Under the pieces are notes generated by a model. It was not told where the DNA came from, did not search any database, and worked only from the letters and a program-made list of their open reading frames with translations. Positions 21,429 through 39,423 of a stretch of 64,000 nt of DNA are shown here, piece by piece. How positions within the stretch are numbered: the stretch's first letter is position 1; each line of letters opens with the position of its first letter. The DNA is from an uncultured beta proteobacterium (lineage in GTDB: Bacteria > Pseudomonadota > Gammaproteobacteria > Burkholderiales > Casimicrobiaceae). The DNA is taken from contig CAVSDL010000008.1 of NCBI GenBank assembly GCA_963726775.1, positions 105,063 to 169,062 on the forward strand, in the 5' to 3' direction. The translations under genes were made by a program, and so were the position numbers.

Positions 21429-23547
21429 CTTGTTGCGCGCAGCGTGCGCTGCGCTCGCCGTGGCGGCGATGGCCGGCGCCGGCGTTACGCTGGCGCAGAC
21501 TCCCGCCGCGGCGGCCAGAGGCGCGGCGGGGGCTGCGGCAAAGCCGGTCGATGGCCGCTACGGTATGCAGGTCCTCGCCGAGATCGTCAGCGTCCATTCG
21601 GAGCCGAACCCCAGGTCGGCGGTACTTGCCGATCTGCAACAGGGCGCAAAGCTGGAGGCCGATCAGCGCCGCGGCACCTGGTATCGCATCCGGCTTGCGG
21701 ACGGTCGCATCGGATGGATCGGCTACGTCGTCGGCAAGACGAGCGCGAATTTTTCGGTGGACGCCACGCCGGGGCTGGCGCGTGGCGTGCCGAGCGGCGC
21801 CGGTCAGCAGCCGGGGACTGTGGCCGCCGAGCCCGTGGCGCCGCCGGTTGTTGCCGCCGAAGCGGTTCCCGACGATCGCATCGTCGTGCAGCGACCGATG
21901 GGCAGACCGATCGAGCCGCCGATTCCCGAGATCGATCCAGCACAGGTGCCGCCTCCGGAGCCGCTCCTGCCGCGCGAGTCGATCCCGGTGCCCGACCGCT
22001 GGCGACTCACCGATCAGCTCGGCCTCACCGACAATCGCTGGTACGACCCGTACAACCCGAACACGCTGAAGGGCGACCGACCGGTATTCGGCGGCGACTG
22101 GTTCTTCAGCCTGGGCATCGTGTCCGACACGCTCTTCGAAGCGCGCCAGATTCCGACGCCCATCGGCGCGCAGTCCACCGATCGCCCGCAGTCGAACGAC
22201 CAGTTCGGCCGCAACCGGCAGTCGCAGTTCAACGAGAACCTGATCGTCAGCCTGTCGCTGCTGAAGGGCGACACGACGTTCAAGCCGCCGGAAATCGAGC
22301 TGCGGTTCGTGCCGGTCATCAACTTCAACCGCACGGACGTCGGCGAAGTCCGCGTGCTGAAGATCGATCCGCGCCAGGGGACGACGCGCAACGACAGCCA
22401 GGTCGCGGTGCAGGAGCTGTTCGTCGACTACGAGTACCACATCGCCTCCGAGCATTACGACTTCGACAGCGTTCGCGTCGGCATTCAGCCTATCACCGCC
22501 GATTTCCGCGGCCTGCTGTTCCTCGACCAGCCGCTGGGCATCCGCCTGTTCGGCACCCGCGACAACAACCAGTGGCAGTACAACTTCGGGTGGTTCCGCC
22601 GCCTCGAGAAGGACACCAACAGCGGCTTGAACGACATTGGCAAGCCTCTGCGCAACGAGAACATCTTTCTCGCCAACGTGTACCGCCAGGACTTCTGGGT
22701 TCCGGGATTCACGCTGCAAGGCACGGTGATCTACGACGACAACCGCGAGAGCGCGGACGCCTACTACGACAAGAACGGGTTCCAGGTCCGGCCCGCCATC
22801 ATGGGCGACGCGCGGCCGCACACGTATCAGGTCACCTACGTCGGCCTCAATGGCGACGGTCACTTCGGCCGCTGGAACCTCACCGCGTCGCTGTACGGCG
22901 CATTCGGGACGGTCAGCCACGATTCCCTTGCGCAGCAGAAGGTCGACGTCGCCGCCGCCTACGCGGTCGCCGAAGTCTCGCGCGATTTCGACTGGATCCG
23001 CGTGCGCGGCACGGGTCTTCTCCAGAGCGGCGACAAGGATCCGTTCGACAACAAGGCGACCGGCTTCGACGCGATCTACGAAAATCCGCAGATCGCCGGC
23101 GCGGACACCAGTTATTGGATCCGGCAGTCGGTCCCGCTGATCGGCGGCGGAGGCATAGCGCTCTCCGGACGCAACGGCGTGCTCGCCGCGCTGCGCTCGT
23201 CGAAGGACGAGGGCCAGGCCAATTTCACCAACCCCGGGCTCGCGCTGATCGGCGTGGGTGCCGACGCCGATCTCACGCCGCGCTGGCGCGTCATCGGCAA
23301 CCTGAACCAGTTGTGGTTCGCCAATACGTCGTCGCTGTCCGTCCTGCGCAACCAGGGCACGATCAGCCGCACCGTGGGCACCGACGTGTCGATGGCGGTC
23401 CAGTACCGTCCGCTGTTCTCGCAGAACGTCGTCCTGAATGCATCCGCGGCGGCGCTGATTCCGGGGCAGGGGCTGAAGCAGCTGTACGCGTTCGACGGCG
23501 GCAAGACGCAGTACTCGATCCTCTTCAACCTGCTGCTGACCTATTGA
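21409..23547 (+). CDS. Outer-membrane beta-barrel protein with N-terminal bacterial SH3-like domain
   Basis: ORF 21391..23547. ATG 21409 gives the signal peptide MSVPGSDLLRAACAALAVAAMAGAGVTLAQ. An SH3b-like segment follows (SVHSEPNPRSAVLADLQQGAKLEADQRRGTWYRIRLADGRIGWIGYV), then a Pro-rich linker. The remaining ~480 aa have alternating amphipathic strands and end in the aromatic terminus LFNLLLTY. Confidence 0.65.
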   Translation: MSVPGSDLLRAACAALAVAAMAGAGVTLAQTPAAAARGAAGAAAKPVDGRYGMQVLAEIVSVHSEPNPRSAVLADLQQGAKLEADQRRGTWYRIRLADGRIGWIGYVVGKTSANFSVDATPGLARGVPSGAGQQPGTVAAEPVAPPVVAAEAVPDDRIVVQRPMGRPIEPPIPEIDPAQVPPPEPLLPRESIPVPDRWRLTDQLGLTDNRWYDPYNPNTLKGDRPVFGGDWFFSLGIVSDTLFEARQIPTPIGAQSTDRPQSNDQFGRNRQSQFNENLIVSLSLLKGDTTFKPPEIELRFVPVINFNRTDVGEVRVLKIDPRQGTTRNDSQVAVQELFVDYEYHIASEHYDFDSVRVGIQPITADFRGLLFLDQPLGIRLFGTRDNNQWQYNFGWFRRLEKDTNSGLNDIGKPLRNENIFLANVYRQDFWVPGFTLQGTVIYDDNRESADAYYDKNGFQVRPAIMGDARPHTYQVTYVGLNGDGHFGRWNLTASLYGAFGTVSHDSLAQQKVDVAAAYAVAEVSRDFDWIRVRGTGLLQSGDKDPFDNKATGFDAIYENPQIAGADTSYWIRQSVPLIGGGGIALSGRNGVLAALRSSKDEGQANFTNPGLALIGVGADADLTPRWRVIGNLNQLWFANTSSLSVLRNQGTISRTVGTDVSMAVQYRPLFSQNVVLNASAAALIPGQGLKQLYAFDGGKTQYSILFNLLLTY

Positions 23548-23549
23548 GA

Positions 23550-26500
23550 ATGCGCGCGATGGCACATGGCAATCGTCGGACCGGCGACCGTCGGCAAGGA
23601 CAGGCGCGCGCCGGTGCCGTCTGCGCGGCGTGGCTGCCTCTGGCGGCCGGCGCGGTTCTCGCCGTGCTCTCCGCGCTGGCCTACGGGACCGGCGGGGAGT
23701 CGCCGGTGGCGCGCAACTACCTGCCGCAGGCGCCGGCGCCGGAACGCCAGACGCTCGCCGTGGCACAGGTGAAGTCGCAAGGCTGCAAGAGCTGCCACAC
23801 GGCGAGCGACCACGAGACGATGCACGTCAACCCCGCGGTGATCCTGGGATGCGCGGACTGCCACGGCGGCGACCCGAAGGTCACGAGGCCGCAGGGTGCG
23901 GAGCCGAAGGACCCGGCCTACCGGAACGCCGTGGCGAGCGCGCACGTGCTGCCGCGCTATCCGGTGGCGTGGAAATATCCGTCGAGCGCCAATCCGCCCG
24001 ACAGCTACACGCTGCTCAACCGCGAGGCGCCCGAATACGTGCGCTTCGTCAATCCCGGGGATTACCGCGTGGCGCGGGAATCCTGCGGCGCCTGCCATCT
24101 GCGCATCATCCAGGCGACCGAGCGAAGCCTGATGTCCAGCAGCGCCATGCTGTGGGGCGGCGGGTCGTACAACAACGGCATCCTGCCCTTCAAGCGCTAC
24201 GTGCTGGGCGAAGCGTATACGGCGCAAAGCGAGGCGGCGACGATCGTCAATCCGATCCCGCCGACGCCGCTGATGACCGAGAAAGGCATCCTGCCGCGGC
24301 TCTACCCGTTGCCGGCCTGGGAAACCGTGCCGCCGGGCGACGTCTTTCGCGTTTTCGAGCGCGGCGGGCGCGTGATCTCGAGCCAGTTCCCGGAAATCGG
24401 ACTGCCGAACATTGCCGGCGCGCTGCAAAGGCTCGACGAGCCCGGTCGCCCCGACATCCGGCAGTCGAACCGCGGGCCGGGCACCGGGCTCCGCATTTCG
24501 GTGCCGGTGCTCAACATCACGAAGACGCGGTTGAACGATCCGCACATGTGGTTCCTCGGGACGAACGAGCAGCCGGGTGACTACCGGTCGTCGGGGTGCT
24601 CCGGCTGCCACGCCGTCTACGCGAACGACCGCGACCCGAAGCACAGCGGCCCTTACGCGGCGTTCGGTCACGAAGGGCAGTCGCAAACCGCCGATCCGAC
24701 GATCGCGCGGGGCGAGTCCGGCCACCCGCTGAAGCACGAGTTAACGCGGGCGATTCCCTCGTCGCAGTGCATGGTCTGCCACATGCACCAGCCGAACGTT
24801 TTCGTGAATTCGTATTTCGGATTCATCATGTGGGACTACGAATCCGACGCGCCTTTCATGTGGCCGGAGAAGCAGCGTTACCCGACCGGCGCCGAGACGC
24901 GCGCGATCCTCGACCGCAATCCCGAGGAGGCGGCGATCCGCGGCAAGTGGAGCGACCCCGAGTTCCTTAAGGACGTCAGCGCGCTCAACGCGCAGCTCAA
25001 GGATACGCAGTTCGCCGACTACCACGGCCACGGCTGGAACTTCCGCGCGGTGTTCAAGCGCGACCGCAAGGGAACGCTGCAGGACAAGGACGGCAAGCCG
25101 GTCTCCGACGACGACCCGGACAAGTTCAAGAAGGCGGTGCACCTGACGTCGATCCACATGGACCTCGGCATGCACTGCGTGGACTGCCACTTCGCGCAGG
25201 ACGCGCACGGCAACGGCCACATCTACGGCGAGGTGGCGGCGGCCATCGAGATCGACTGCGCCGACTGCCATGGTACGGCGACGAAGTATCCGACGCTCTT
25301 CACGTCCGGCCCGGCTTCGCAGCCCGGCGGCACCGACCTGTCGCTGCTGCGCACGCAGGACGGGCGCAAGCGCTTCGAGTGGCGCGACGGCAAGCTCTAC
25401 CAGCGCGCGGCGCTCGACCCCGACAAGGAATGGGAGATGTCGCTGGTCAAGGACACCGTCAATCCGCTGCATCCGAAGTACAACGTCAAGGCCGCCAGGG
25501 CGAAGCTCATGTCGACCGGCGACTCGATGCAGTGGGGGCCCGGCGTCGACCCGCAGAAATACGCGCACGGCGACGACAAGGTGACCTGCCAGACCTGCCA
25601 CCTGTCGTGGACCACCAGCTGCGCGGGCTGCCACCTGCCGATCCAGGCGAACGCGAAGACCGAGCGCCACCACTACGAGGGCGGCGAAACGCGCAACTTC
25701 GCGACGTACAACCCGCAGGTCGCGCGCGACGACATGTTCCAGCTCGGCCGCCACGGCGATGCGAAGAACTTCAGGATCGCGCCGGTGCGCTCCAGCTCGG
25801 CGCTGGTGCTGTCGTCGACCAACATCAACCGCGAGCGGATCTACATCCAGCAGCCACCCGTCGCGGCGTCGGGATTCAGCTCGCAGGCGTTTGCGCCGCA
25901 CTATCCGCATACCGAGCGCAAGACCGAGACCAAGACCTGCCCCGACTGCCATCTGTCGAAGAGCAACGACAACAACGCGATCATGGCGCAACTCCTCCTG
26001 CAGGGGACGAATTTCGTCAACTTCGTCGGCTACAACGCGTGGGTCGGCGAGGAGCGCCGCGTCACTGCCGTGCAGGTGACCGAGTGGGACGAGCCGCAGG
26101 CCGTGATCGGCAGCTACCTGCACCGCTACGCGTACCCCGACTGGTACGCCCAGCACCAGCAGCGCGACAAACGGCTGCCGACGATGTCGACGCACGACAC
26201 GAAGGGCGCCGCCCGCTGCCTGCAACTGCGCGGCGAATACCTCTACGTCGCCGAAGGCGCGGGAGGGATGCGCGTCTACGACGTCGCCAGCATCGCCAAC
26301 AAGGGAGTGTCGCAGAAGATCCTGAGCGCGCCGTTCGCGCCCTGGGGCCAGGACACGCACATCCGCTCGACGAACGCCACCTGCGTGGCGCTGCCGACCA
26401 ACCAGCCGATCGCCCCGCAGCGCAACGAGGGCGATCTGATGCGGGTGACGAATCAGGAGCAGCCGTTCCACCCGATGTACAACTACGCGGCGATCACCGA

Positions 26501-27398
26501 CGCGGTCGAGGGCCTGATCCTCACCAACGTCAACACGCTCGCCGACGGCGACCCGCAGAACAACTTCCTCGTGCGCGCGGTGACGTGGAACGAGAACGGC
26601 ATTCTCAACGGCGCGCGCCACATCACGCTGGGCGGGCGCTACGCCTATGTCGCCGCCGATGCCGGGCTCGTCGTCGTCGATCTCGACGATCCGCTCAAGC
26701 CGAAGCTGGTCGCGATCGTCGCCCTGAAGGGTGTGCGCGCCTCGGCGCTGCAGTTCCGCTACCTGTTCGTTGCCGACGACGCCGGATTGACGACCGTCGA
26801 CGTCACCGATCCGGCGCGGCCGCGGCACGTGGGCACCGCGCGCGTCCCGCTTGCCGACGCCAACCGCATCTACGTGGCACGCACCTACGCCTACGTCGCC
26901 GCCGGCAAGGAAGGGCTTGCGATCGTCGACGTCGAGCAGCCGGAGGCGCCGAAGCTGTACATGAAATTCACCGCCGAAGGCAGACTCGACGACGCGCGCG
27001 ACGTCGTCGTCGGCAGCACCAACGCGTCGCTGTTCGCCTATGTCGCCGACGGCGCGAACGGCCTCAAGGTGGTGCAGATGACCGCGCCGGACACGCAGCC
27101 GAAATTCTACGGATTCTCGCCGGATCCCAAGCCGCAGCTGATCGCGTGGCGCGGTACGGTGACGCCCGCGCTGGCGCTGTCGAAGGGACTCGACCGCGAC
27201 CGCGCGGTGGATGAGACCGGCGGCCAGATCGCGGTGTTCGGCCGGATCGGCTCGCGCCCGTTCACGTTGGAAGAGATGAAGAAGTTCTACCAGCGCCCCG
27301 ACGGCACGGTGTGGACCGTGACCGACGAGGTCCGGATGCAGGAGTTCGTGCCCGCGCGCGCGACGGCGGCTGACACCCGGCCGTTGCCGAGGCAGTGA
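23550..27398 (+). CDS. Large decahaem c-type cytochrome fused to a C-terminal LVIVD-repeat beta-propeller (1282 aa)
   Basis: This is the real gene within track ORF 21444..27398. ATG 23550 lies 2 nt after the OMP stop. There is an N-terminal hydrophobic anchor or signal (AVCAAWLPLAAGAVLAVLSALAYG). Ten CXXCH motifs are present: CKSCH, CADCH, CGACH, CSGCH, CMVCH, CVDCH, CADCH, CQTCH, CAGCH, CPDCH. At least five LVIVD-type repeats follow (YLYVAEGAGGMRVYDV, YAYVAADAGLVVVDLDDP, YLFVADDAGLTTVDVTDP, YAYVAAGKEGLAIVDVEQP, FAYVADGANGLKVVQM). Confidence 0.85.
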   Translation: MRAMAHGNRRTGDRRQGQARAGAVCAAWLPLAAGAVLAVLSALAYGTGGESPVARNYLPQAPAPERQTLAVAQVKSQGCKSCHTASDHETMHVNPAVILGCADCHGGDPKVTRPQGAEPKDPAYRNAVASAHVLPRYPVAWKYPSSANPPDSYTLLNREAPEYVRFVNPGDYRVARESCGACHLRIIQATERSLMSSSAMLWGGGSYNNGILPFKRYVLGEAYTAQSEAATIVNPIPPTPLMTEKGILPRLYPLPAWETVPPGDVFRVFERGGRVISSQFPEIGLPNIAGALQRLDEPGRPDIRQSNRGPGTGLRISVPVLNITKTRLNDPHMWFLGTNEQPGDYRSSGCSGCHAVYANDRDPKHSGPYAAFGHEGQSQTADPTIARGESGHPLKHELTRAIPSSQCMVCHMHQPNVFVNSYFGFIMWDYESDAPFMWPEKQRYPTGAETRAILDRNPEEAAIRGKWSDPEFLKDVSALNAQLKDTQFADYHGHGWNFRAVFKRDRKGTLQDKDGKPVSDDDPDKFKKAVHLTSIHMDLGMHCVDCHFAQDAHGNGHIYGEVAAAIEIDCADCHGTATKYPTLFTSGPASQPGGTDLSLLRTQDGRKRFEWRDGKLYQRAALDPDKEWEMSLVKDTVNPLHPKYNVKAARAKLMSTGDSMQWGPGVDPQKYAHGDDKVTCQTCHLSWTTSCAGCHLPIQANAKTERHHYEGGETRNFATYNPQVARDDMFQLGRHGDAKNFRIAPVRSSSALVLSSTNINRERIYIQQPPVAASGFSSQAFAPHYPHTERKTETKTCPDCHLSKSNDNNAIMAQLLLQGTNFVNFVGYNAWVGEERRVTAVQVTEWDEPQAVIGSYLHRYAYPDWYAQHQQRDKRLPTMSTHDTKGAARCLQLRGEYLYVAEGAGGMRVYDVASIANKGVSQKILSAPFAPWGQDTHIRSTNATCVALPTNQPIAPQRNEGDLMRVTNQEQPFHPMYNYAAITDAVEGLILTNVNTLADGDPQNNFLVRAVTWNENGILNGARHITLGGRYAYVAADAGLVVVDLDDPLKPKLVAIVALKGVRASALQFRYLFVADDAGLTTVDVTDPARPRHVGTARVPLADANRIYVARTYAYVAAGKEGLAIVDVEQPEAPKLYMKFTAEGRLDDARDVVVGSTNASLFAYVADGANGLKVVQMTAPDTQPKFYGFSPDPKPQLIAWRGTVTPALALSKGLDRDRAVDETGGQIAVFGRIGSRPFTLEEMKKFYQRPDGTVWTVTDEVRMQEFVPARATAADTRPLPRQ

Positions 27399-27406
27399 GG
27401 AACACC

Positions 27407-28768
27407 ATGAGACCAACGACCCTCCGTTCCGATCAACGTCGCGCGCGCCTCGCCGGCTCGCTCGTCGCGGTGGCCCTGGCGCTTTTCGCCGCGGCAGCCG
27501 TCGCGCAGACAGCGGCCCCGGTCCCGCTGCCCTATCACGCCGCCGACAAGAGCATGGGCGTGGTCAATTGCGCGAACAGCCTGTGCCATGGCTCGGTGCA
27601 GCCGATCAGGGATTCGAACGTGCTGCAGACCGAATATGTGACGTGGTCGCGGGTCGACAAGCACGCACGCGCTTACAAAGTGCTCTTCAACGACCAGTCG
27701 CAGCGCATCGCCCGCAACCTGGGTCTTGCCAAACCGCCGCACGAGGAAGCGGTATGCCTCAACTGCCATGCGCACAATGTCCCTGCGGCGCAGCGCGGCG
27801 AGCGCTTCAAGTTCGACGACGGCGTGTCCTGCGAGGCCTGCCACGGTCCGGCGGGCCGCTGGCTCGCGGGCCATGCGCAGGACGGCGCCACGCACGCGGA
27901 CAACCTTAAGGCCGGCCTCTATCCGACCGACGATACGGTGCACCGGGCACAGCTGTGCCTGTCATGCCACTTCGGCAATGCCGACCGCTTCGTCACCCAC
28001 CGGATCATGGGCGCGGGGCACCCGCGGATGAGCTTCGAGCTCGACACGTTCACGACCGTCGAGCCCGCGCACTTCAAGCCCGATTCCGATTGGGAGAAGC
28101 GTAAGCGGATGTGGGACGGCGTCAAGGTATGGGCGATCGGGCAGGCGCTCGTCGTCTCCGAGATGATGGACGTGCTGGCCGATCCTAAGCGCGGGCGCGA
28201 CGGGTTGTTCCCCGAACTCGTGCTGTTCGACTGCCACGCCTGCCATCACCCGATGAGCGACAGGCGCTGGGCGCCGCGCATCGCCGGCCTGGGACCCGGC
28301 ACGGTGCGGCTCAACGACTCGAGCATGCTCATGGTGAGGCAGATCGCGCGCGTCGTGGATCCCGCGCTCGGCGAGCGCATTGCCGCGACGATGACGAAGC
28401 TCCAGCAGACGGTGACCGGCGGCGGCGACGCGATCGGGCAGGCGAATGCATTGAAGGCCGACATGGCGACGCTGATCGCCGTTCTCGACAAACGCACGAT
28501 CGGCGAGGCCGACATGCGCGCGATCCTCGCCGGTCTCGTCAATGACGGGCTGGCTGGCCAGTACCGCGACTACGCCGGAGCCGAGCAGGCGACCATGGCG
28601 ATCGGCAGCGTCGCCAATTTCATGTTCCAGCGCGGCGTGCTCAAATCGGCGCGGGATGTCAACGGCGGACTCGCCGCGCTGCAGGCGGCCGTCGCCGATG
28701 ACGAGCGCTACAGCCCCGGACGGTTTCAGGCGGCGTTGAGGAATTTCCGCGGAACCGTGGGGCTGTAG
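27407..28768 (+). CDS. Periplasmic multihaem cytochrome, cytochrome c554-like family
   Basis: ORF 27395..28768. ATG 27407 gives the signal peptide MRPTTLRSDQRRARLAGSLVAVALALFAAAAVAQ. There are four CXXCH motifs (CLNCH, CEACH, CLSCH, CHACH) plus one CX4CH (CANSLCH). The C-terminal half is helical and haem-free. Confidence 0.75.
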   Translation: MRPTTLRSDQRRARLAGSLVAVALALFAAAAVAQTAAPVPLPYHAADKSMGVVNCANSLCHGSVQPIRDSNVLQTEYVTWSRVDKHARAYKVLFNDQSQRIARNLGLAKPPHEEAVCLNCHAHNVPAAQRGERFKFDDGVSCEACHGPAGRWLAGHAQDGATHADNLKAGLYPTDDTVHRAQLCLSCHFGNADRFVTHRIMGAGHPRMSFELDTFTTVEPAHFKPDSDWEKRKRMWDGVKVWAIGQALVVSEMMDVLADPKRGRDGLFPELVLFDCHACHHPMSDRRWAPRIAGLGPGTVRLNDSSMLMVRQIARVVDPALGERIAATMTKLQQTVTGGGDAIGQANALKADMATLIAVLDKRTIGEADMRAILAGLVNDGLAGQYRDYAGAEQATMAIGSVANFMFQRGVLKSARDVNGGLAALQAAVADDERYSPGRFQAALRNFRGTVGL

Positions 28769-28831
28769 GCGTCGCCGCTGTTCGGATCCGGACAACTCCT
28801 CGCCTCCGACTCGGGATGACACGTCCAGATC

Positions 28832-31246
28832 ATGCCTGAATCGTTCAAGATCGCCATCGTCGGTTCCGGTCCGTCCGGCCTCTCGGCCGCGGCGCACGCG
28901 GCCGAACTCGGCATCGCCCATGTGCTGCTGGAGTCGGAAAAGCAACCCGCCGACACGATCTACAAGTACCAGAAGGGCAAGTACGTGATGGCGGAGCCGT
29001 CGATCCTGCCGCTGCGCAGCCCGATGTCGTTCGCCGCCGGCACGCGCGAGAAGGTCCTTGGGGCATGGGACGCCGAACTGGCGAAGTACAAGGTAAACCT
29101 GCGGAAGGGCGCCGGGGTCACCGCCATTGCCGGGCAGAAGGGTGCCTTCGCCCTCACGCTCGCGGGGGGCGACACGGTTGCCGCCGAGCACGTGATCCTC
29201 GCGATCGGATTGCAGGGCAATCTGCGCAAGCTCGGTGCGCCGGGCGAAGACCTGCCCATCGTCCAGTACCAGCTCGACGACCCGAAGGAGTACGAGGACG
29301 AGACGATCATCGTCGTCGGCGCCGGCGACGCCGCGATCGAGAATGCGCTGGCGCTGGCGGAACAGAACCGCGTGATACTGATCAACCGCAACGAGGAATT
29401 CGCCCGCTGCAAGGAAGGCAACCTGAGCCTGGTCCTCGCGGCGATCAAGGATGGCAAGCTCGAATGCCGGTACCAGGCGTCGGCGGCGAACGTGGAGATG
29501 GTCACGACCGACGGCTGTCCCGCGCGATTCAATGCCAGGACGCCCGAGGGCGCCGAGACCATCGGCTGCCACCGCGTCATCGCGCGCCTGGGGGCGATCC
29601 CGCCACGCAAGCTGGTCGAGTCGTTCGGCGTCAAGTTCCCCAATGCGGACCCGGCGGCGGTGCCGCAGCTTTCCGATACCTACGAATCGAACGTGCCCGG
29701 CCTCTACATCATCGGCGCGTTGGGCGGCTATCCGCTGATCAAGCAGGCGATGAACCAGGGCTTTGAGGCCGTCGAATACATTCGTGGCAACCGCGTCGAG
29801 CCGGCGGACGAATCGCTGCTCAAGGCGAAGTTCGCGCATTACGTGCGGGCAAGGACGGTCGGCGAAGGGCTTTCGCTGCTGCAGAGGAATGTGCCGCTGC
29901 TGGCCGGCATCACAACGCTGCAGTTGCGCGAGTTCCTGATCGACAGCGACATTCGCACGCCGAAACCGGGCGAGATCGTCTTCAATCGCCTTGACTACAC
30001 GAACACATTCTACTCGATCGTCGAAGGCGAGGTCGGCGTCGAGCTCAACGGCGGAACGCCCGATGCGCGCTGGATCGTGCTCCGCTCCGGCGATTTCTTC
30101 GGTGAGCTATCGCTGATCTCCGGGCGCCGCCGCGCGGCGACGGTGAAGGCGGGACAGGACTGCGTGCTGGTCGAGACGCCGCGGCGCTCGATGCTGAAGC
30201 TGATCGCATCGGTCGACAGTGTGCGGCGCACGATCGACGCCACATTCCTGAAGCGAGCGATCCGCGCGTACCTGTCGCAGGAGTTGCCCGAGGCGGACCT
30301 CGATGCGCTTGCCGAAGGCGCGCAGATCAGGGCCGTCGCCGCCGGCGATACGCTGTTCGCCGAGGGTGCTGCAGCCGACGGACTCTATCTGATACGCCGT
30401 GGATCAGTGACGGTGTCGCGCCGGATCGGCGGCCGCGATGTCGTGCTGTCGTACGTCGCGGCCGGCAACTATGTCGGCGAGATGGCGCTCCTGTCCGACG
30501 CCCCGCGGATGGGAACCGTGAAGGCTGCGGTGGCGACCGAGGCGATCGTCCTCGACGGCGCGCGGTTCAAGGACGTCGTGGCGCGGCATCCGAAGCTGCG
30601 CGAGTCGATGGAGAGCCGTTTTCTCGACCGCATCCGCGCCAATGTGCAGATGGAATCGCAGGGCGAGTCGGGCAACGTCATCAGCTACCTGCTGCAGCAG
30701 GGCATCGGCGAGGCCACCGACGTCCTGCTGATCGACGAGAGCCTGTGCATACGCTGCGATAATTGCGAAAGGGCGTGCGCCGACACGCACGAAGGCACGT
30801 CGCGGCTCAATCGCGAGGCCGGCCCGACCTACGCGCAGCTCCACGTGCCGACGTCGTGCCGCCATTGCGAGCACCCCCACTGCATGAAGGACTGCCCGCC
30901 GGACGCGATCCACCGGGCGCCGAACGGCGAAGTGTTCATCATGGACACCTGCATCGGCTGCGGCAATTGCGAGCGCAATTGTCCCTATGGCGTCATCCAG
31001 ATGGCCCCGCTGGATCCGCGGCGCCGCGCGCCGAGCCTGTGGTCGTGGCTGCTATGGGGAACGGGCGCCGAGCCCGGCCGCGAGGAAAAGGTCTACGACA
31101 AGTCGATGGTCAAGAAGGCCGTCAAGTGCGACATGTGCAAGGGCCAGGCCGGCGGCGCCGCCTGCGTGCGCGCCTGTCCCACGGGAGCCGCGCTCCGCGT
31201 GTCGCCGGAGAAATTCCTCGATTACGCGAGCGGGGTCGAAGTCTGA
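28832..31246 (+). CDS. Fusion protein: FAD/NAD(P)-dependent pyridine nucleotide-disulfide oxidoreductase domain + two cyclic-nucleotide-binding domains + four-cluster [4Fe-4S] ferredoxin domain
   Basis: ORF 28832..31246. Dinucleotide folds: IAIVGSGPSGLSAA and IIVVGAGDAAIENA. cNMP signatures: FFGELSLISGRRRAATVKA and YVGEMALLSDAPRMGTVKA. Cys motifs: CIRCDNCERAC, CRHCEHPHCMKDCP, CIGCGNCERNCP, CDMCKGQAGGAACVRACP. There is no signal or Tat peptide. Confidence 0.85.
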   Translation: MPESFKIAIVGSGPSGLSAAAHAAELGIAHVLLESEKQPADTIYKYQKGKYVMAEPSILPLRSPMSFAAGTREKVLGAWDAELAKYKVNLRKGAGVTAIAGQKGAFALTLAGGDTVAAEHVILAIGLQGNLRKLGAPGEDLPIVQYQLDDPKEYEDETIIVVGAGDAAIENALALAEQNRVILINRNEEFARCKEGNLSLVLAAIKDGKLECRYQASAANVEMVTTDGCPARFNARTPEGAETIGCHRVIARLGAIPPRKLVESFGVKFPNADPAAVPQLSDTYESNVPGLYIIGALGGYPLIKQAMNQGFEAVEYIRGNRVEPADESLLKAKFAHYVRARTVGEGLSLLQRNVPLLAGITTLQLREFLIDSDIRTPKPGEIVFNRLDYTNTFYSIVEGEVGVELNGGTPDARWIVLRSGDFFGELSLISGRRRAATVKAGQDCVLVETPRRSMLKLIASVDSVRRTIDATFLKRAIRAYLSQELPEADLDALAEGAQIRAVAAGDTLFAEGAAADGLYLIRRGSVTVSRRIGGRDVVLSYVAAGNYVGEMALLSDAPRMGTVKAAVATEAIVLDGARFKDVVARHPKLRESMESRFLDRIRANVQMESQGESGNVISYLLQQGIGEATDVLLIDESLCIRCDNCERACADTHEGTSRLNREAGPTYAQLHVPTSCRHCEHPHCMKDCPPDAIHRAPNGEVFIMDTCIGCGNCERNCPYGVIQMAPLDPRRRAPSLWSWLLWGTGAEPGREEKVYDKSMVKKAVKCDMCKGQAGGAACVRACPTGAALRVSPEKFLDYASGVEV

Positions 31247-31311: not shown

Positions 31312-33604
31312 ATGCCCGACAAGGAAATTCGCGAAGCGTCGCTCGAATACCACCGGCAGTCTCCGCCGGGGAAGATCTCGGTCCAGCCGACGAAGCACCT
31401 CACCAACCAGCGCGACCTGGCGCTCGCCTATACGCCGGGGGTCGCCGCCGCGTGCGACGAGATCGTCCGCGACCCCGCCGAGGCGCGCAACCTCACGGCG
31501 CGCGGCAATCTGATCGGCGTCGTCACCAACGGCACGGCCGTGCTGGGTCTGGGCGCGATCGGGCCGCTCGCCGCAAAGCCGGTGATGGAAGGCAAGGCGG
31601 TGCTGTTCAAGAAATTCGCCGGCATCGACTGCTTCGACATCGAGATCAACGAGCGCGACCCGGACAAGCTGGTCGACATCATCGCATCGCTGGAGCCGAC
31701 CTTCGGCGGCATCAACCTCGAGGACATCAAGGCGCCGGAGTGTTTCTATGTCGAGCGAGCGCTGCGCGAGCGGCTGAAGATCCCGGTGTTCCACGACGAC
31801 CAGCACGGGACCGCGATCATCGTCGGCGCGGCGATCACCAACGGCTTGCGCGTCGTCGGCAAGGATCTCGCCAAGGTCAAGCTGGTCTGCTCCGGCGCAG
31901 GCGCCGCGGCGCTCGCCTGCCTCGACTTGCTCGTGGCGCTCGGCATCGCCCGGAGGAATATCTGGGTCGCCGACATCGCCGGCGTCGTCTATGCGGGCCG
32001 CAAGGAGGAGATGGACGACAACAAGGCGCGTTACGCCCAGAAGACCGATGCGCGCACGCTCGCCGACCTGCTGCCCGGCGCCGACATTTTTCTGGGGTTG
32101 TCCGCGGCGAAGGTGCTGAAGCCCGAATGGCTGCCGAAGATGGCCGCGAGGCCGCTGATCATGGCGCTCGCCAATCCCGAGCCCGAAATCATGCCGGATC
32201 TCGCGAAGGCGGCGCGTCCCGACGCGATTATCGCGACCGGGCGCTCGGACTACCCGAACCAGGTCAACAACGTGCTGTGTTTTCCGTTCATCTTCCGCGG
32301 CGCGCTTGATGTCGGGGCGACGACGGTCAACGAAGCGATGAAGCTCGCGTCGGTGCGCGCGCTGGCCGACCTCGCGATGGCCGAGCAATCCGATATCGTC
32401 GCCAACGCGTACGGCGAGCAGAACCTGCGCTTCGGCCCCGAGTACCTGATACCAAAGCCTTTCGACCCGCGCCTCATCGTGCAGATCGCGCCGGCGGTGG
32501 CGAAGGCGGCGATGGACTCGGGCGTGGCGACGCGACCGATCGCCGATTTCGCAGCGTATCGCGAAAGGCTCACGCAGTTCGTCTACCACTCCGGCCTGCT
32601 GATGAAGCCGATCTTCACGGCGGCAAAGAAGGATCCCAAACGGATCGTCTATGCCGAAGGCGAGGACGAACGCGTGTTGCGCGCGGCGCAGGTGGTGATC
32701 GATGAAGGCATCGCGCGTCCGATCCTCGTCGGTCGGCCGACGGTCATCGAGCGCGAGGTCGAAAAGCTCGGGCTGCGCATCCGGCCGGGCACGGATTTCG
32801 AACGTCATCAATCCCGAGCACGACCCGCGGTACCGTGCCTACTGGACCGAGTATTACGCGCTGACGGCGCGCAAGGGCGTGTCGCAGCAGTACGCGAAGA
32901 TCGAGATGCGCCGCCGGCTCACGCTGATCGGCGCGATGATGATCCACATGGGCGAGGCCGACGGCATGCTGTGCGGCACGTTCGGCACGCACGAACTGCA
33001 TCGAGGCTACGTCGATCAGGTGATCGGATTGCGCAAGGGCGCCCGGGTCTACGCGGCGATGAACGCGGTCATGCTCCCCGGCCGCACCGTGTTCATCGCC
33101 GACACCTACGTCAATGTCGATCCGACGGCCGAGCAGGTGGCCGAGATCGCGCTGCTCGCCGCCGAGGAGATCCGCCGCTTCGGCATCGCGCCGAAAGTCG
33201 CCCTCCTGTCGCACTCGAGTTTCGGCAGCAGCACGCATCCGCAGGCGAAGAAGATGCAGGCGGCGCTCGCGCTGCTCAACGCGATGGCCCCGGACCTCGA
33301 GGTCGAGGGCGAGATGCACGGCGACGCGGCGCTGGATGAGGAGGTGCGTATGCGCGCGTTCCCGAGTTCGCGGCTGAAAGGCGAAGCGAACCTGCTGATC
33401 ATGCCGACTGTCGATGCGGCGAACATCTCGTTCAACCTGCTCAAGGCCTCCTCCGGCGGCGGCGTGACGCTGGGGCCGATCCTTCTCGGCGTTGCCAAGC
33501 CGGTGCACATCCTGACGCCGTCGGCGACGGTGCGCCGGATCGTCAACATGACGGCATTGACGGTCGTCGATGCCAACATCCAGCGGACGGCGCCGGGAAA
33601 CTGA
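31312..33604 (+). pseudogene. maeB: NADP-dependent malic enzyme (malic enzyme + phosphotransacetylase-like domain), disrupted by a single-base frameshift
   Basis: ORF 31312..33339 is MaeB-like up to ...LRIRPGTDFE. The continuation VINPEHDPRYRAYWTEYYALTARKG...TVRRIVNMTALTVVDA lies in the next frame (ORF 32702..33604). The extra base is c32803 (gaa c gtc atc aat). Total length is 2293 nt, which is 3n+1. Confidence 0.88.
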
Positions 33605-35127: not shown

Positions 35128-36393
35128 CTATTGAAGCCCGTTTGTGCCCGACCGCATCTGCTGCAGATACCAGCGGATGAACGCGTCGACGTTGTACTCC
35201 TTGCGCTGCGACAGCGGTCCCGGCTCGTAGCCGATCGAATCGACACCCTTCTGCTGCCACTTGCAGATTTCCCAGTCCTGCTCGTTGGTGAGATGCCAGA
35301 ACGGCAGCAGGCGCTCGAGCTGGTAGTCCTGGCCTTCCCGCGCGTCCTGGTGCACCAGCCAGTAGCTGCGCATCCTTGTTGCGCGCAGTCCGGCCGGCAG
35401 CATGCGGGTGACGACCGCGTGGTCGCAGTTCGCGTGCAGCCAGAAATTCGGCAGGCTGCGCATCCGCAGAACGCCGACGTCGGCGTCGCGGTAATCGCCC
35501 ATCAGCGGGGCGACGCGCTGCCCGTCCATCGATTCGGTATCGAAGTCCTCGGCCAGCGCAGTGCGATTGGAGGTGTACCACTCGTCGCGATCGGGATCCG
35601 GAAATGTGTGGAGCCCGCCCTTCGGATGCGCGGCGGCGTCACCCGGTACCGCCCACTTCGATTGTACACGCGCCAGCGCGGCGGCGATCTTCGCGCGGGT
35701 TGCCTCGGAAGCGTGCTCCTCTTCATAGATGTCGAAGTTGGACTTCACGTACTGCGGATGGCGGGCCGCACAGTGATAACACTCGCGGTTGTTCTCCCAC
35801 ACGAGTTTCCAGTTGGCGTCGACATCGTAGTCGGCAACGTGCGCGATCCGCGCGCGGTCGAATCCCTGCGGCGCGCCCGCCATCGTGAAACGTTCGCGCA
35901 GGCCGTCGAACGCGGGCGGCGTCGCGGCCAGCGAGACGTAGATCAGGCCGGAACAGACTTCCGCGTGCAGCGGCCGCAGGCCCAGCTTCGACTTGTCGAC
36001 GCCGTCGTGCATGCCTTGGCAGGCGATGAGTTCGCCCTGCCGCGAGTAGGTCCAGCTGTGATACGGGCAGACGAGCGCGCGGACGTGACCGGACTCCGTG
36101 CGACAGAGCTGCGTGCCGCGGTGCCGGCACACGTTGTGGAACGCCCGCACGGCGCCGCCGTCGTCGCGTATAACGAGCACGGGCGTTGCATCGACATCGA
36201 AGGTCAGGAAATCGCCGGGATTCGGAATCTCGAACGCGAACCCGGCAAACAGCCATCCGCCCCGCCAGATCTGCGCAAGCTCGGCGGCATAGAGCGCATC
36301 GGTGACATAGAACGAGCGCGGCATGCCTTGGCCTTCGCGGCGCGTGTCGAGCAGGGCCGCGAGCTCCGGGTCAAGTGGATGCAAACTGGACAT
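35128..36393 (-). CDS. Rieske [2Fe-2S] non-haem-iron oxygenase alpha subunit, GbcA-like (quaternary amine demethylating monooxygenase candidate)
   Basis: ORF 35128..36894 trimmed to the ATG at 36393 (MSSLHPLDPELAALL...). It has the Rieske motif CRHRGTQLC...CPYHSWTY and a catalytic domain with NNRECYHC. Its neighbours are betaine-catabolic genes. Confidence 0.82.
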   Translation of the reverse strand: MSSLHPLDPELAALLDTRREGQGMPRSFYVTDALYAAELAQIWRGGWLFAGFAFEIPNPGDFLTFDVDATPVLVIRDDGGAVRAFHNVCRHRGTQLCRTESGHVRALVCPYHSWTYSRQGELIACQGMHDGVDKSKLGLRPLHAEVCSGLIYVSLAATPPAFDGLRERFTMAGAPQGFDRARIAHVADYDVDANWKLVWENNRECYHCAARHPQYVKSNFDIYEEEHASEATRAKIAAALARVQSKWAVPGDAAAHPKGGLHTFPDPDRDEWYTSNRTALAEDFDTESMDGQRVAPLMGDYRDADVGVLRMRSLPNFWLHANCDHAVVTRMLPAGLRATRMRSYWLVHQDAREGQDYQLERLLPFWHLTNEQDWEICKWQQKGVDSIGYEPGPLSQRKEYNVDAFIRWYLQQMRSGTNGLQ

Positions 36394-36422
36394 CGTCGGG
36401 TCCTGGAATCGTGCAGTGGCGA

Positions 36423-38837
36423 TTACGCCAGAATCGCCTTGCGCTCGGGATCGTAGAGCGGCCGCGCATGGCGGACCGCCGGATGGCGCTCGCCCATGAC
36501 TTCGACCGCACATTCGGTGGCAAGCGGTTCGCTGGCGCTGACATAGGCGCAGAGGATGTTGCGGCCAATCGTGTAGCCGTATCCGGCGCTCGTGACCCGG
36601 CCGAGCACGCGGTCGCCGGCGACCACGATTTCGCCGCCGTACAGATTGAGCTCCGGGGGCGCGGTGAACCACGCGAGCTTCTGTTTCGGTCCACGGGCCT
36701 TCACTTCTGCCAGCGCGGCGCGAGCAAGGAATTCCCCCTTGTCCGGCGCGACGCAGAAACCGAGACCGGCCTCGTACGGGTTGTAATCCGGCGTGATGTC
36801 GGAGCCCCAGACGAGGTAGTGCTTCTCGAGGCGCAGGCTGTTGATCGCGCGATAGCCAACGTTGGCGATGCCGTGACGCAGGCCGGCGGCCCACAGCCGC
36901 TCGTAGAGATGGAGCGCGTATTCGACCGGCACGTGCAACTCGTAGCCGAGCTCGCCCAGATACGTGACGCGTAGCGCCAGCACCGGCGCATAGCCGAGAT
37001 CGAGCTCGCGCGCCTGCATGTACGCGAAGCTCGCGTTATCGAGCGGCGCGTCGGTGAGTTCGGCGAGCACGTCGCGCGAACGCGGTCCGCAAATGTTCAG
37101 CACCGCCTTCGCCGACGTGTGCTCGATGATTTCGACGCCGCCGTCAGGGGGCAAATGTCGCTCGATCGTCGAGCGGTCGCGCACGCCGAGCGCGCTGCCG
37201 GTGACGAAATAGAAGCGATTCTCGGCGAGTCGGGTGATCGTCACGTCGGCCTCGATTCCGCCGCGTTCGTTGCACAGTTGCGTGTAGACAATGGTGCCGG
37301 CCGGCCGGTCGAGGTCGTTGACGGCGAGCTTCTGCAGCAGCGACAGTGCGCCGGGACCGCGAATTTCGTATTTCGAGAACGAACTCATGTCGATCAGCGC
37401 CACGCGTTCGCGTACGGCACGGTGCTCGGTGGCGATCGCGTCGAAGGCCGGACCGCGCTCGAAGGAGGGTGTCTCGACGGCTGGCGTCCCCGAGGGAGTG
37501 AACCAGTTCGGCCGTTCCCAGCCGAACTTGCTGCCGTAGACCGCGCCGGCGCGCGCCAGCGTCTCGTAGAGCGGACTGCGTCGCACGTGACGGCCGGCAT
37601 CGGCATCGTAATTCGGCCACGCGATGTGATAGTAGCGGGCGTAGCTTTCGACGGCGCGCTCGTACATGAAATCCTTGACCGAGTGCGTCGCGCCGAAGCG
37701 GCGCACGTCGAACGGCCACAGATCGAGTCCCGGGTCGCCGTCGACGATCCAGTTCGCCATCACCCATCCGGCGCCGCCCGACGCCGCGATCCCGGAAGTC
37801 AGACCGCAGCACAGATAGAAGTTGTCGAGTTCGGGCGAGAGACCGATGATCGGCTCGCCGTCGGCGGTGATCGGGATCGGGCCGTTGATCATCTGGCGGA
37901 TGCCGATTTCGTTGAGCACAGGCAGCCGCGCCGCGGCTGCCTCGGCAAGCGGCGCGAAGCGGTCGAAGTCCGGTTGCAGCAATTCCGGACCGAAGTCGCG
38001 CGCGATGCCCTGCGCGCCCCAGGGTCGCGTATTCGTCTCCCACCCTCCGACCGCCAGCGCCCCGGGTTCCGGCTTCACGTAAAAGTTGCCGTCGGGGTCG
38101 CGCAGCGTCGGCAGGCCGGCAGGGATTCGTGCGGTCTTTTCGGTGACGAAATATTGGTGCTCGACGGCGCACGCCGGGACGCGCGTTCCGGCCATCGCGG
38201 CGATTTCGCGCCCCCACATCCCGGTGGCATTGATCACGCACTCGGCATCGATGTCGCCAGCATCGGTGACGACCGTGGCGACACGGCGTCCGACGCGTTT
38301 CAGGCCCGTCACGCGCACGCCCTGCAGCAGCGTCGCGCCGCCGGCACGCGCGCCGGCAGCGTAGGCGTTGGTCAGGCTCGTCGGATCGACGTAGCCGTCA
38401 CCGGCAATCCACGCGGCGCCGACCACACCTTTCGCTTCGAGCAGCGGGAACAGGTCGCGGGCTTGTTGCGGCGATACGAGTTCGACCTGGAAGCCGAATC
38501 CCCTGGCCATGGTGGCCGAGCGCCTGAGTTCCTGCCAGCGCGCCGGGGATGACGCGAGGCGCAGGCTGCCGACGCCGTGCCACCCGGTCGCCTGGCCGGT
38601 TTCGGCTTCGAGCTTGCCGTACAGCTCGGCGCCGTAGCGCATGATGCGCGTCAGGTTGCTGCTGCTGCGCAGCTGGCCGACAAGCCCGGCGGCATGCCAG
38701 GTCGCGCCGTGCGTGAGCTGCAGTCGCTCCAGCAGCACCACATCGCGTTCGCCGCGCTTGGCCAGATGGTAGGCGATGCTGCACCCGACGGCGCCACCGC
38801 CGATAATGACGATGCGGCATTTCCTGGGCACACGCAT
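36423..38837 (-). CDS. FAD-dependent dimethylglycine/sarcosine dehydrogenase family protein with GcvT-like folate domain (paralogue 1)
   Basis: ORF 36423..38837. It has IVIIGGGAVGCSIAYHLA, the covalent-FAD motif HGATWHAAGL, and a C-terminal aminomethyltransferase-like domain (RLEKHYLVWGSDITPDYNPYEAGL). Confidence 0.85.
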   Translation of the reverse strand: MRVPRKCRIVIIGGGAVGCSIAYHLAKRGERDVVLLERLQLTHGATWHAAGLVGQLRSSSNLTRIMRYGAELYGKLEAETGQATGWHGVGSLRLASSPARWQELRRSATMARGFGFQVELVSPQQARDLFPLLEAKGVVGAAWIAGDGYVDPTSLTNAYAAGARAGGATLLQGVRVTGLKRVGRRVATVVTDAGDIDAECVINATGMWGREIAAMAGTRVPACAVEHQYFVTEKTARIPAGLPTLRDPDGNFYVKPEPGALAVGGWETNTRPWGAQGIARDFGPELLQPDFDRFAPLAEAAAARLPVLNEIGIRQMINGPIPITADGEPIIGLSPELDNFYLCCGLTSGIAASGGAGWVMANWIVDGDPGLDLWPFDVRRFGATHSVKDFMYERAVESYARYYHIAWPNYDADAGRHVRRSPLYETLARAGAVYGSKFGWERPNWFTPSGTPAVETPSFERGPAFDAIATEHRAVRERVALIDMSSFSKYEIRGPGALSLLQKLAVNDLDRPAGTIVYTQLCNERGGIEADVTITRLAENRFYFVTGSALGVRDRSTIERHLPPDGGVEIIEHTSAKAVLNICGPRSRDVLAELTDAPLDNASFAYMQARELDLGYAPVLALRVTYLGELGYELHVPVEYALHLYERLWAAGLRHGIANVGYRAINSLRLEKHYLVWGSDITPDYNPYEAGLGFCVAPDKGEFLARAALAEVKARGPKQKLAWFTAPPELNLYGGEIVVAGDRVLGRVTSAGYGYTIGRNILCAYVSASEPLATECAVEVMGERHPAVRHARPLYDPERKAILA

Positions 38838-39111
38838 TCGAAGGGCTCTCTTTGGAATAAGCTCAGACTCGACTTTTCAACGGCGCAAAGCGTTGGGCCG
38901 GCGCGCGATCGCAATAAGTCGAATCTGACCCTCGTTCCGCTCGTTCCGCGCAATCTCAATCTTGCCGCGCAGCGCCGCTGCTCGCGGATGGCGTCGAATC
39001 TAGCACACAACGCGAACGGATCCTCAACGACCTTCGTCCGCGCTCTCCACGCGGCCGCATCGAGGTCGCAAATTGATCGCTGCGGAATTGCGCGATACCT
39101 GTCGCATAACG

Positions 39112-39254: not shown

Positions 39255-39423
39255 TGCGGTAGCGCTCGGTAGGGGCATTTTTTTACCGGTCGCGACGTTG
39301 CTTCGGGAATGGCGTCGAAATACAAAGCGGCGTCGCATACGGACCAGCCGCAGCATCGTCCCCTCACCATACTTCCGGCGACGTCCGCGTTGTGATTCCG
39401 GATGTCCGAAAACAGGAGAGCCC

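Follow-up and report, generated by a model that had tools for sequence, protein, structure and literature searches.

What would a cytoplasmic protein that joins a flavin domain to a pair of cyclic-nucleotide-binding (CNB) domains and a ferredoxin be doing beside a run of genes for multihaem cytochromes? The question is raised by the gene at positions 28832–31246 (+) of a 64,000-nucleotide stretch of DNA, here called the window, from an uncultured beta proteobacterium of the Casimicrobiaceae (GenBank assembly GCA_963726775.1, contig CAVSDL010000008.1, positions 105,063 to 169,062 of the forward strand). An initial annotation, made from the letters alone, had described the product as a four-part fusion that closes a cytochrome operon and transfers electrons to or from NAD(P)H under the control of cAMP or cGMP. 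From its domains, its partner genes and its relatives, we conclude that the protein is probably the cytoplasmic redox-entry subunit of a conserved electron-transfer complex that spans the cell envelope, with the CNB pair as its regulator.

A flavodomain, two CNB domains and a four-cluster ferredoxin in one chain

The open reading frame (ORF) begins with ATG, encodes 804 residues and has a G+C content at third codon positions (GC3) of 0.87, the level of genuine genes in this window of 66% GC; a protein identical to its product (P0001) is present in public data. Pfam recovered a flavodomain, two stretches of the cyclic nucleotide monophosphate (cNMP) family cNMP_binding and 4Fe-4S families, in agreement with the four-part fusion originally described. 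The claim that the protein lacks an export signal also held: we found no transmembrane (TM) helix, hydrophobic segment or signal peptide in its sequence, and its N terminus leads directly into the GxGxxG loop (residues 11–16) of the FAD fold, from which we take the protein to be cytoplasmic. In an alignment-based AlphaFold model the mean predicted local distance difference test (pLDDT) score was 71, with values of 75–95 for the flavodomain and the CNB domains and 35–55 for the iron–sulfur (FeS) domain; a single-sequence model (pLDDT 33) was of no use, and we used the alignment-based one.

The first part, at residues ~5–320 (28844–29791, +), has the two-dinucleotide fold of the thioredoxin reductase (TrxR) and YpdA group. 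It passes the gathering cut-offs of both Pyr_redox_3 (residues 9–295, E=2e-27, 96.7 bits against a cut-off of 30) and Pyr_redox_2 (residues 5–310, E=6.5e-21, 75.5 bits against 26.1), and it carries both dinucleotide motifs, GSGPSG at residues 11–16 for FAD and GAGDAA at residues 163–168 for NAD(P)H, the latter followed by NRNEEFARCK. G11, G13 and G16, as well as G163, G165 and D166, are invariant among 25 diverse homologues. When the PDB was searched with Foldseek, the closest fold was that of YpdA, the bacillithiol-disulfide reductase (Bdr; target-normalised TM-score 0.77), and the next matches were the TrxR-type ferredoxin–NADP+ reductases (FNRs) 2zbw, 3ab1, 3lzw and 5ygq, along with thioredoxin reductases.

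Because YpdA/Bdr and TrxR give the best NCBIfam and structural matches, the protein might be thought to work on its own in the cytoplasm, as a disulfide reductase like YpdA or TrxR or as a soluble FNR, its place beside the cytochrome genes being incidental. However, every NCBIfam equivalog model scored far under its cut-off, with 53 bits against 343 for thioredoxin reductase proper (TIGR01292) and 105 bits against 340 for YpdA/Bdr (TIGR04018), the best of all. No CxxC occurs in residues 1–330, and across the family only 3 of 163 members have one; the catalytic cysteine of Bdr sits in an N-terminal G-G-G-P-C-G loop, and the corresponding GSGPSG loop here has no cysteine. With the catalytic cysteines of both the TrxR and the Bdr types absent, we dropped the disulfide-reductase reading, since disulfide chemistry is unlikely and an FNR-like role between NAD(P)H and an FeS acceptor is natural. 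The fold and the absence of CxxC fit the TrxR-type FNRs, and the FeS domain in cis hints at the acceptor. These features fit a predicted NAD(P)H-to-FeS electron module of the YpdA and TrxR-type FNR group. The segment NRNEEFARCK resembles HRRxxxR, the NADPH-phosphate motif of TrxR, and so points to a possible preference for NADPH.

The C-terminal part, at residues ~632–790 (30725–31201, +), is a four-cluster ferredoxin domain of the DmsB/NrfC/HycB type, which belongs to Fer4_11 (PF13247, DmsB type; 32.1 bits against a cut-off of 26.2) and also matches Fer4_7 and related families. Its 16 cysteines form four groups (C639/642/645/649, C676/679/684/688, C707/710/713/717 and C766/769/778/782), and the patterns tested for these were CxxCxxCxxxC, CxxCx4CxxxCP, CxxCxxCxxxCP and CxxCxnCxxxCP. 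All 16 are invariant in 25 homologues reaching down to 31% identity and are kept in 159 of the 163 family members. Matches in NCBIfam and the PDB were to HycB3, HycB, ArrB and NrfC, including the structures 7qv7 (HycB3) and 7z0s (HycB). We rejected assignment as a periplasm-facing NrfC/DmsB-like subunit, there being no signal peptide, no NrfD-like gene in the cluster and equivalog scores far under the cut-off. An insert of ~48 residues separates the third and fourth cysteine groups (residues ~718–765; 30983–31126). It contains a conserved Trp-rich stretch, SLWSWLLWG, and the close clade shows no variation at W739, L740, G745, P748 or G749; the insert might serve, as an amphipathic element, to dock the protein to the membrane or to a partner.

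A large family linked to the same partner genes across phyla

The fusion had initially been called unusual, a description that our survey of its distribution led us to tone down, because the family is large and widespread and related modules appear in two preprints. A word-indexed search with the 804-residue protein gave 6135 matches at E≤1e-10, with more than 120 full-length homologues of ~800 residues that share the same Pfam set at 67–93% identity; those with names are called 'cyclic nucleotide-binding domain-containing protein' and come from Betaproteobacteria or from metagenome-assembled genomes (MAGs) of Casimicrobiaceae. An exhaustive search of 50%-identity representatives gave 957 clusters at E≤1e-30, and among the representatives listed ~50 were full length, with the architecture kept down to 31–35% identity. 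A short form of ~450 residues with only the two CNB domains and the four-cluster domain (P0260, for example) also occurs, as do extended forms. In a search of one genome per species, the full-length copies among the matches listed, all in MAGs, came from Lysobacter, Steroidobacteraceae, Chromatiales, Wenzhouxiangella, Stellaceae, Rhizomicrobium, Rubrimonas and other Alpha- and Gammaproteobacteria, as well as from Sulfotelmatobacter, Thermoanaerobaculia and Thermoflexus.

In the window, the flavoprotein gene is the last of a conserved set, with the genes for the multihaem cytochromes upstream of it and all on the same strand. The first of its six partners encodes a protein with five TM helices (16966–17799, +), and the second (17815–19563, +) encodes a cytoplasmic FHA domain, one TM helix (residues 143–161) and a periplasmic decahaem cytochrome c with 10 CXXCH motifs (Pfam Yop-YscD_cpl/FHA-like, Cytochrome_C7 and c3). 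The third product (19560–21428, +) is a putative lipoprotein (lipobox LVAGC) in which Pfam finds three HbpS-like stretches; these are HbpS/GlcG-like repeats, and the protein, which may handle haem or iron or sense redox state, is kept in the cluster across phyla. It is followed by a protein with a signal peptide, an SH3 domain (SH3_3, SH3_4) and a large C-terminal domain ending ...LLLTY (21391–23547, +), which is conserved in the loci and is a candidate outer-membrane barrel. The last two partners are a secreted decahaem protein of ~1280 residues with LVIVD beta-propeller repeats (23550–27398, +; LVIVD E=4.8e-23, 10 CXXCH) and a secreted c554-like cytochrome with a signal peptide, four CXXCH and one CX3CH (27395–28768, +; Cytochrome_C554). 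A neighbouring 1984-residue ORF (21444–27398) that had earlier been read as one gene is a long open frame in GC-rich DNA spanning two: it resolves into the SH3 gene, which lies in another frame, and the LVIVD gene, whose limits we set by comparison with locus L004 and by GC3 analysis.

To count linkage we ran tblastn with the proteins of the window cluster against every full-length locus and scored those with enough flank. At every one of these (the window, L001–L018, L022, L069 and L070, spanning Beta-, Gamma- and Alphaproteobacteria, Acidobacteriota and Chloroflexota), the flavoprotein gene is linked to the six partner genes. The order varies: the flavoprotein gene comes first, directly ahead of the 5-TM and FHA-cytochrome genes, in L006–L009, L011, L012, L014–L018 and L022; it comes last, after the c554-like gene, in the window, L001, L004, L005, L010, L069 and L070; and in L013 it lies between the LVIVD and c554-like genes. 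The position that had been read as closing the operon thus describes the window, whereas in most other lineages the same gene opens the cluster. Because the linkage persists through rearrangement across phyla, the flavoprotein and its partners appear to form a functional unit, and this comparison strongly supports the view that the flavoprotein belongs functionally to the cytochrome gene set.

If the flavoprotein gene had a promoter of its own, it might be expressed apart from the cytochrome genes, an outcome that the initial annotation had named as fatal to its proposal. The spacer of 63 nucleotides between the c554-like gene and the flavoprotein gene (28769–28831, +) contained no sigma-70-like promoter or terminator in our scan, which looked for sigma-70-type sites only and had a yield no richer than that from shuffled sequence. 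At the same junction in relatives the two genes are 8 nucleotides apart (L004), overlapping (L069) or 108 nucleotides apart (L070). Because the gap lacks a promoter- or terminator-like site and the junctions in relatives are short or overlapping, independent expression of the flavoprotein gene is unlikely. The partial family-2 repeat reported in this spacer did not hold up: its first 30 nucleotides are single-copy in the window, and the gap falls outside all repeat families.

Several natural fusions join the same parts. In a Kofleriaceae MAG (L019, 9875–15915), the first ORF combines two CNB domains, a four-cluster ferredoxin and the 5-TM protein, and the next combines four FHA domains, a TM helix, a multihaem cytochrome c, another TM helix, a two-cluster ferredoxin and a YpdA-like flavodomain with the KGKxVMAEP signature of the family; this is a compact two-gene version of the core. 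P0123 (1110 residues, 55% identical to the window protein) joins the full 804-residue architecture to the 5-TM protein; it is a single metagenomic gene call and possibly an artefact, but L019 and P0136 are independent of it. In P0136 two FHA domains are added at the N terminus of the flavoprotein architecture, and in P0174 an extra ferredoxin is inserted after the flavodomain. The topology implied by the fusions is consistent, with the FHA, FeS and flavin parts all cytoplasmic, and because the fusions join them, the flavin domain, the CNB–FeS part, the membrane protein and the FHA-cytochrome would lie in one physical assembly.

These results bear directly on the independent-enzyme explanation. 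In the closest relatives a gene for an NADP-malic enzyme follows the flavoprotein gene, which can be read in favour of such an enzyme; it is a neighbour in close relatives only, and we rejected the malic enzyme as a conserved NADPH-supplying partner. The cytochrome linkage, in contrast, is universal and survives rearrangement, and fusions with the membrane partners exist. Contradicted by both synteny and fusions, the idea of an unrelated enzyme that happens to adjoin cytochrome genes has next to no probability in our estimation.

FHA domains recur around the flavoprotein, and we identified no Ser/Thr kinase partner for them. A protein with DUF4388 (PATAN-like) and FHA domains is encoded directly upstream of the flavoprotein in a Thermoanaerobaculia MAG (L017, 8511–9458). 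The only kinase-like gene among the window ORFs scanned encodes a RIO-type protein kinase (6754–7659, −), ~9 kb from the cluster.

A candidate dihaem protein for the membrane step

The 5-TM gene has a GTG start at 16966 with a GGAGG-like site upstream. Alignment of 15 homologues of its product revealed two pairs of histidines, H82/H96 in TM3 and H254/H268 in TM5, each pair 13 residues apart and all four present in every one of the 15. The alignment also shows an invariant R-K after TM2 and a cytoplasmic loop of ~130 residues ahead of TM5. Two bis-His b haems stacked across the membrane are the geometry found in cytochrome b, NOX and MsrQ. The four invariant histidines suggest that the 5-TM protein likewise would hold two b haems, and their geometry supports the label 'dihaem-b-like' that the protein had been given earlier. 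Profile matches are faint: Ni_hydr_CYTB (the prokaryotic cytochrome b561 family) in 13 of the 15 homologues (best E=8.5e-5) and DUF4405 in 6 of the 15, all sub-threshold, with a negligible match to Ferric_reduct in one (E=0.07).

The CNB pair and a possible second-messenger link

Between the flavodomain and the ferredoxin lie CNB-A (residues ~375–480; 29954–30271, +), with the phosphate-binding cassette FGELSLISGRRRAATV, and CNB-B (residues ~487–612; 30290–30667, +), with the cassette GEMALLSDAPRMGTV. Two stretches match cNMP_binding (PF00027; E=1.7e-33, 114.8 bits against a cut-off of 27.5), the better of them at residues 500–586, and residues ~379–584 align with the tandem CNB domains of the PKA and PKG regulatory subunits (E=1e-13 to 1e-17). 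A canonical cassette, as we counted it, has Gly-Glu, then Arg, with Thr or Ser two residues after the Arg; both cassettes of the window protein fit GE.{8,10}R..[ST].

The signature is well kept among near relatives. Canonical cassettes were found in 120 of 121 close homologues for CNB-A, in 115 for CNB-B and in 114 for both, and both were canonical in 16 of the 18 cluster-linked genomic orthologues, including those from Acidobacteriota and Chloroflexota. At 40–50% identity only 6 of 25 representatives had two canonical cassettes, and below 40% only 2 of 14; the Arg/Glu signature was absent from both cassettes in 9 of the 25 and 8 of the 14, respectively. Because so many distant members have lost the signature, cNMP control is not general to the family. 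Ligand binding is likely for the CNB pair of the window protein and its orthologues, as distinct from the whole superfamily. The sequence does not allow a choice between cAMP and cGMP, because CNB-A reads RAAT (PKA-like) in the window protein and RTAT (PKG-like) in many orthologues.

In some lineages, genes for a possible source of the nucleotide lie close by. In the Casimicrobiaceae loci L001–L003 a gene for a CHASE2–Guanylate_cyc protein, a class III cyclase, lies directly upstream of the flavoprotein gene, after CHAT/TPR and 222-residue genes. In a Chromatiales MAG (L008) a CHASE2-cyclase gene of the same orientation is found ~4 kb upstream, separated from the flavoprotein gene by TPR and FecR genes, and in L022 a CHAT gene precedes the flavoprotein gene. 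A signalling set made up of CHAT/TPR, a small protein, a CHASE2-class III cyclase and a FecR-domain protein thus recurs beside the flavoprotein (L001, 4753–9921; L008, 3734–9989; L022, 386–4348), which suggests an envelope-sensing input to the cNMP signal.

The complex could be as we propose and the CNB domains still serve as structural spacers or bind other ligands, as in some proteins of the CRP/FNR family, leaving the module constitutive. Many distant members that keep the 16 cysteines and the flavodomain have degenerate cassettes; tblastn with the L001 CHASE2-cyclase found no homologue in the 64-kb window; and in the Kofleriaceae locus the flavodomain is joined, without CNB domains, to a separate two-cluster ferredoxin. 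What makes this explanation unlikely to us is that conservation of the signature in both domains of nearly all orthologues and close homologues would be hard to explain without a ligand, and that CHASE2-cyclase genes have been recruited beside the flavoprotein in two separate lineages. We keep a regulatory CNB pair in the proposed complex, and gating of the electron module by cNMP is plausible.

A proposed path for electrons and its direction

In the complex that we propose, NAD(P)H would reduce the FAD of the TrxR-type flavodomain, which would act like a TrxR-type FNR, and the electrons would then run along four [4Fe-4S] clusters of the DmsB/HycB-like domain. The 5-TM partner, with its two predicted b-type haems, would take them across the inner membrane to the FHA-anchored cytochrome, whose decahaem domain is periplasmic. 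From there they would pass onward to the c554-like protein and to the LVIVD multihaem protein, the latter probably located at the cell surface, which the electrons may reach via the SH3/barrel protein. Such a conduit would resemble NOX and may be independent of quinones. The tandem PKA-R-like CNB domains, placed between the flavin and the FeS wire, would bind cAMP or cGMP and switch either the flow of electrons or the assembly of the complex. Of the initial annotation, the part best borne out is membership of the cytochrome gene set, for which the linkage, the fusions and the type of flavodomain all speak. The domains, the conserved ligands for the cofactors, the linkage and the fusions were observed directly; that the cofactors are bound, that electrons flow outward, that NADPH is preferred, that cNMP binds and gates, and what the last acceptor would be are inferred from them.

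Outward flow is favoured because it is downhill and would be helped by the membrane potential, and because inward flow would lack a subunit for energy input. TrxR-type FNRs and FeS wires are reversible in principle, and this reversibility is what a complex running the other way would use, with Fe(II), a cathode or reduced humics as a donor outside the cell or in the periplasm, and with electrons passing through the cytochromes, the b haems and the FeS wire to FAD and on to NAD(P)+. The Fe(II) oxidiser Ferrigenium straubiae expresses a related module of three genes, for which its describers propose inward flow from outer-membrane oxidases. Yet reduction of NAD(P)+ by c-type haems is strongly uphill and is also opposed by the membrane potential, the cluster has no energy-coupling subunit (no proton pump, quinone site or bifurcating second flavin), and most hosts, such as Lysobacter, Steroidobacteraceae, Stellaceae and Thermoanaerobaculia, are not known lithotrophs. 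We consider reverse flow improbable, more so than a constitutive module.

The density of regulatory domains raises another alternative, in which the assembly is mainly a signalling device: the cytochromes would report the external redox state via the b haems and FeS clusters to the flavoprotein, and the CNB and FHA domains would relay it inward. There is an FHA domain on the cytochrome, with four in L019, two in P0136 and one beside DUF4388 in L017, and CHAT, TPR, FecR and CHASE2 genes lie close by. HbpS-like proteins, moreover, are redox or haem sensor partners in Streptomyces (HbpS–SenS), and an HbpS-like protein is among the partners here. Against this, ~25 c haems, two b haems, four FeS clusters, FAD and a dinucleotide site would be a very large load for a sensor, and no kinase, DNA-binding or GGDEF output is fused in any variant seen. 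We give a pure sensor very little weight, and we return to the outward electron-transfer complex.

Several observations count against that complex as we have drawn it. The FeS domain is the poorly modelled part of the AlphaFold prediction. For the 5-TM protein, every Pfam match falls short of its gathering threshold, and a profile search against PDB sequences yielded nothing above noise. The cassette signature fades with distance as described, no cyclase homologue accompanies the cluster in the window, and an adjacent cyclase is missing from most loci. The argument for the direction of flow is purely thermodynamic. Finally, the related modules are rated 'function unknown' in the two preprints.

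A more specific version of the proposal goes further. The complex might be a quinone-independent conduit similar in principle to NOX, in which FAD, four FeS clusters, two b haems and ~25 c haems connect cytoplasmic NAD(P)H with the cell surface, and which is switched by cAMP or cGMP from an envelope-sensing CHASE2 cyclase. We offer this only tentatively, as less likely than the general proposal. If it is true, soil and aquatic bacteria from several phyla would carry out extracellular electron transfer that is gated by a second messenger.

Other genes of the window

The NADP-malic enzyme gene downstream of the flavoprotein gene (31312–33604, +), which is of the MaeB type and includes a PTA domain, is broken at ~32803 by a +1 frameshift, with residues 1–497 encoded by 31312–32802 and residues 498–760 by 32804–33592. 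In L001 and L004 it is a single gene of 763 residues; the split gene is either a pseudogene or an assembly error. A second redox module of the NAD(P)H/ferredoxin kind lies upstream, near the cytochrome cluster (10233–14677, +): first a GltD-like flavoprotein of 770 residues that carries Fer4_20 and, at its C terminus, a ferredoxin domain, then both subunits (alpha and beta) of a 2-oxoacid:ferredoxin oxidoreductase. L069 has a similar GltD-like gene near its cluster.

A catabolic set of the methylamine/betaine type occupies 35128–40992. It includes the alpha subunit of a Rieske ring-hydroxylating oxygenase (35128–36894, −), a DAO-GcvT dehydrogenase (36423–38837, −) and an MttB-family methyltransferase (39244–40992, +). 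Because the first two ORFs overlap as listed, at least one start must be over-extended. The dehydrogenase is also 804 residues long; we considered it as a paralogue of the flavoprotein and rejected it.

Relationship to known systems

Each part of the protein has known relatives. The tandem CNB domains can be aligned over ~200 residues with those of the PKA and PKG regulatory subunits, with both cassettes intact, but their output here would be a redox module, not a kinase. Bacteria do have enzymes fused to CNB domains, one being the mycobacterial acetyltransferase Pat (which is also among the NCBIfam matches of the 804-residue protein); to our knowledge, no fusion of a CNB domain to an electron-transfer protein has been characterised. 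The flavodomain shares its fold, its two dinucleotide motifs and the lack of a redox-active CxxC with the TrxR-type FNRs (B. subtilis YumC 3lzw, Chlorobaculum 3ab1 and R. palustris 5ygq) and YpdA/Bdr (7a7b). It differs in its low identity to them (only ~20%), in lacking the active-site cysteine of Bdr, and in having its predicted FeS acceptor in the same chain together with inserted regulatory domains.

The ferredoxin domain has the 16-Cys pattern of DmsB, NrfC, HycB and HydN, and the layout of the cluster recalls the Hmc and Tmc complexes of sulfate reducers, in which a cytoplasmic FeS protein is followed by a membrane cytochrome b and periplasmic multihaem cytochromes. Unlike these systems, the domain here is cytoplasmic and not Tat-exported, has no molybdopterin or hydrogenase partner and no NrfD- or HdrD-type subunit, and would receive its electrons from a fused NAD(P)H flavoprotein.

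Two gene modules described in preprints come closest. The ptd cluster of Alphaproteobacteria from marine oxygen-deficient zones, whose function is given as completely unknown, encodes an FAD oxidoreductase (PtdC), a protein with CNB and 4Fe-4S domains (PtdE), a ferric-reductase-like TM protein (PtdF) and a decahaem cytochrome (PtdG) (bioRxiv 10.1101/2023.11.21.568154). Compared by description only, the two clusters have in common a decahaem cytochrome, a TM protein and a protein that unites CNB and 4Fe-4S domains; genes that answer to the descriptions of PtdE, PtdF and PtdG occur together in the window, and the three adjoin in most loci. The differences are that the flavoprotein and the CNB–FeS part form one 804-residue chain here, with four clusters against two in ptd; that the flavodomain here groups with TrxR and YpdA, whereas the preprint likens PtdC to flavohaemoproteins; and that HbpS-like, SH3 and LVIVD multihaem proteins stand in place of the pentahaem PtdA. 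The c554-like protein with its four to five haems and the SH3/beta-barrel-like protein of the window may or may not correspond to the pentahaem PtdA and the porin PtdB.

The second module, the NHC module of Ferrigenium straubiae, consists of an FHA-nonahaem cytochrome, a 5-TM protein and a cytosolic [4Fe-4S] protein; it was expressed under every condition tested, and its function was left open (bioRxiv 10.64898/2026.01.22.701106). Its authors saw no redox motif in the 5-TM protein, proposed a link to quinone and did not mention CNB or flavin domains (bioRxiv 10.64898/2026.01.22.701106). The three-gene core and its predicted topology are the same as here: the cytochrome has its FHA domain in the cytosol and its haems in the periplasm, joined by one TM helix, and it is accompanied by a 5-TM protein and an FeS protein in the cytosol; the difference is that the 5-TM protein of our family has four invariant histidines and the FeS protein also bears FAD and CNB domains. 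Those histidines are a candidate for the missing transmembrane step, and our proposal offers a role for two modules that the preprints left without one and makes the system open to biochemistry.

In our literature searches we found no characterisation of the fused 804-residue protein. Its parts are all of known kinds; it is their combination, a TrxR-type flavin input with tandem CNB domains and a four-cluster wire leading to a dihaem b protein and a multihaem chain, that has no characterised precedent. The well-studied routes of extracellular electron transfer (Mtr, Pcc and Omc), as far as we know, all draw on the quinol pool and are regulated mainly at transcription. The complex proposed here, if correct, would carry electrons directly from NAD(P)H across the whole envelope and have its own second-messenger switch built in, and it would do so in a large family that extends over several phyla and includes common lineages of soil, sediment and water not regarded as metal respirers.

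The mechanism proposed here has analogues in NOX, FRE, STEAP and MsrQ with Fre. In these, too, cytoplasmic NAD(P)H passes electrons to a flavin, then to two bis-His b haems and to an extracytoplasmic acceptor, and the histidine pairs likewise lie in two TM helices, ~13 residues apart. The 5-TM protein, for its part, lies under every family threshold, and the flavodomain here is of the TrxR type, not the FNR-type fold. The flavin is separated from the membrane by two CNB domains and an FeS wire of four clusters, and the predicted acceptor is a chain of multihaem c-type cytochromes in place of O2, Fe(III) or MsrP.

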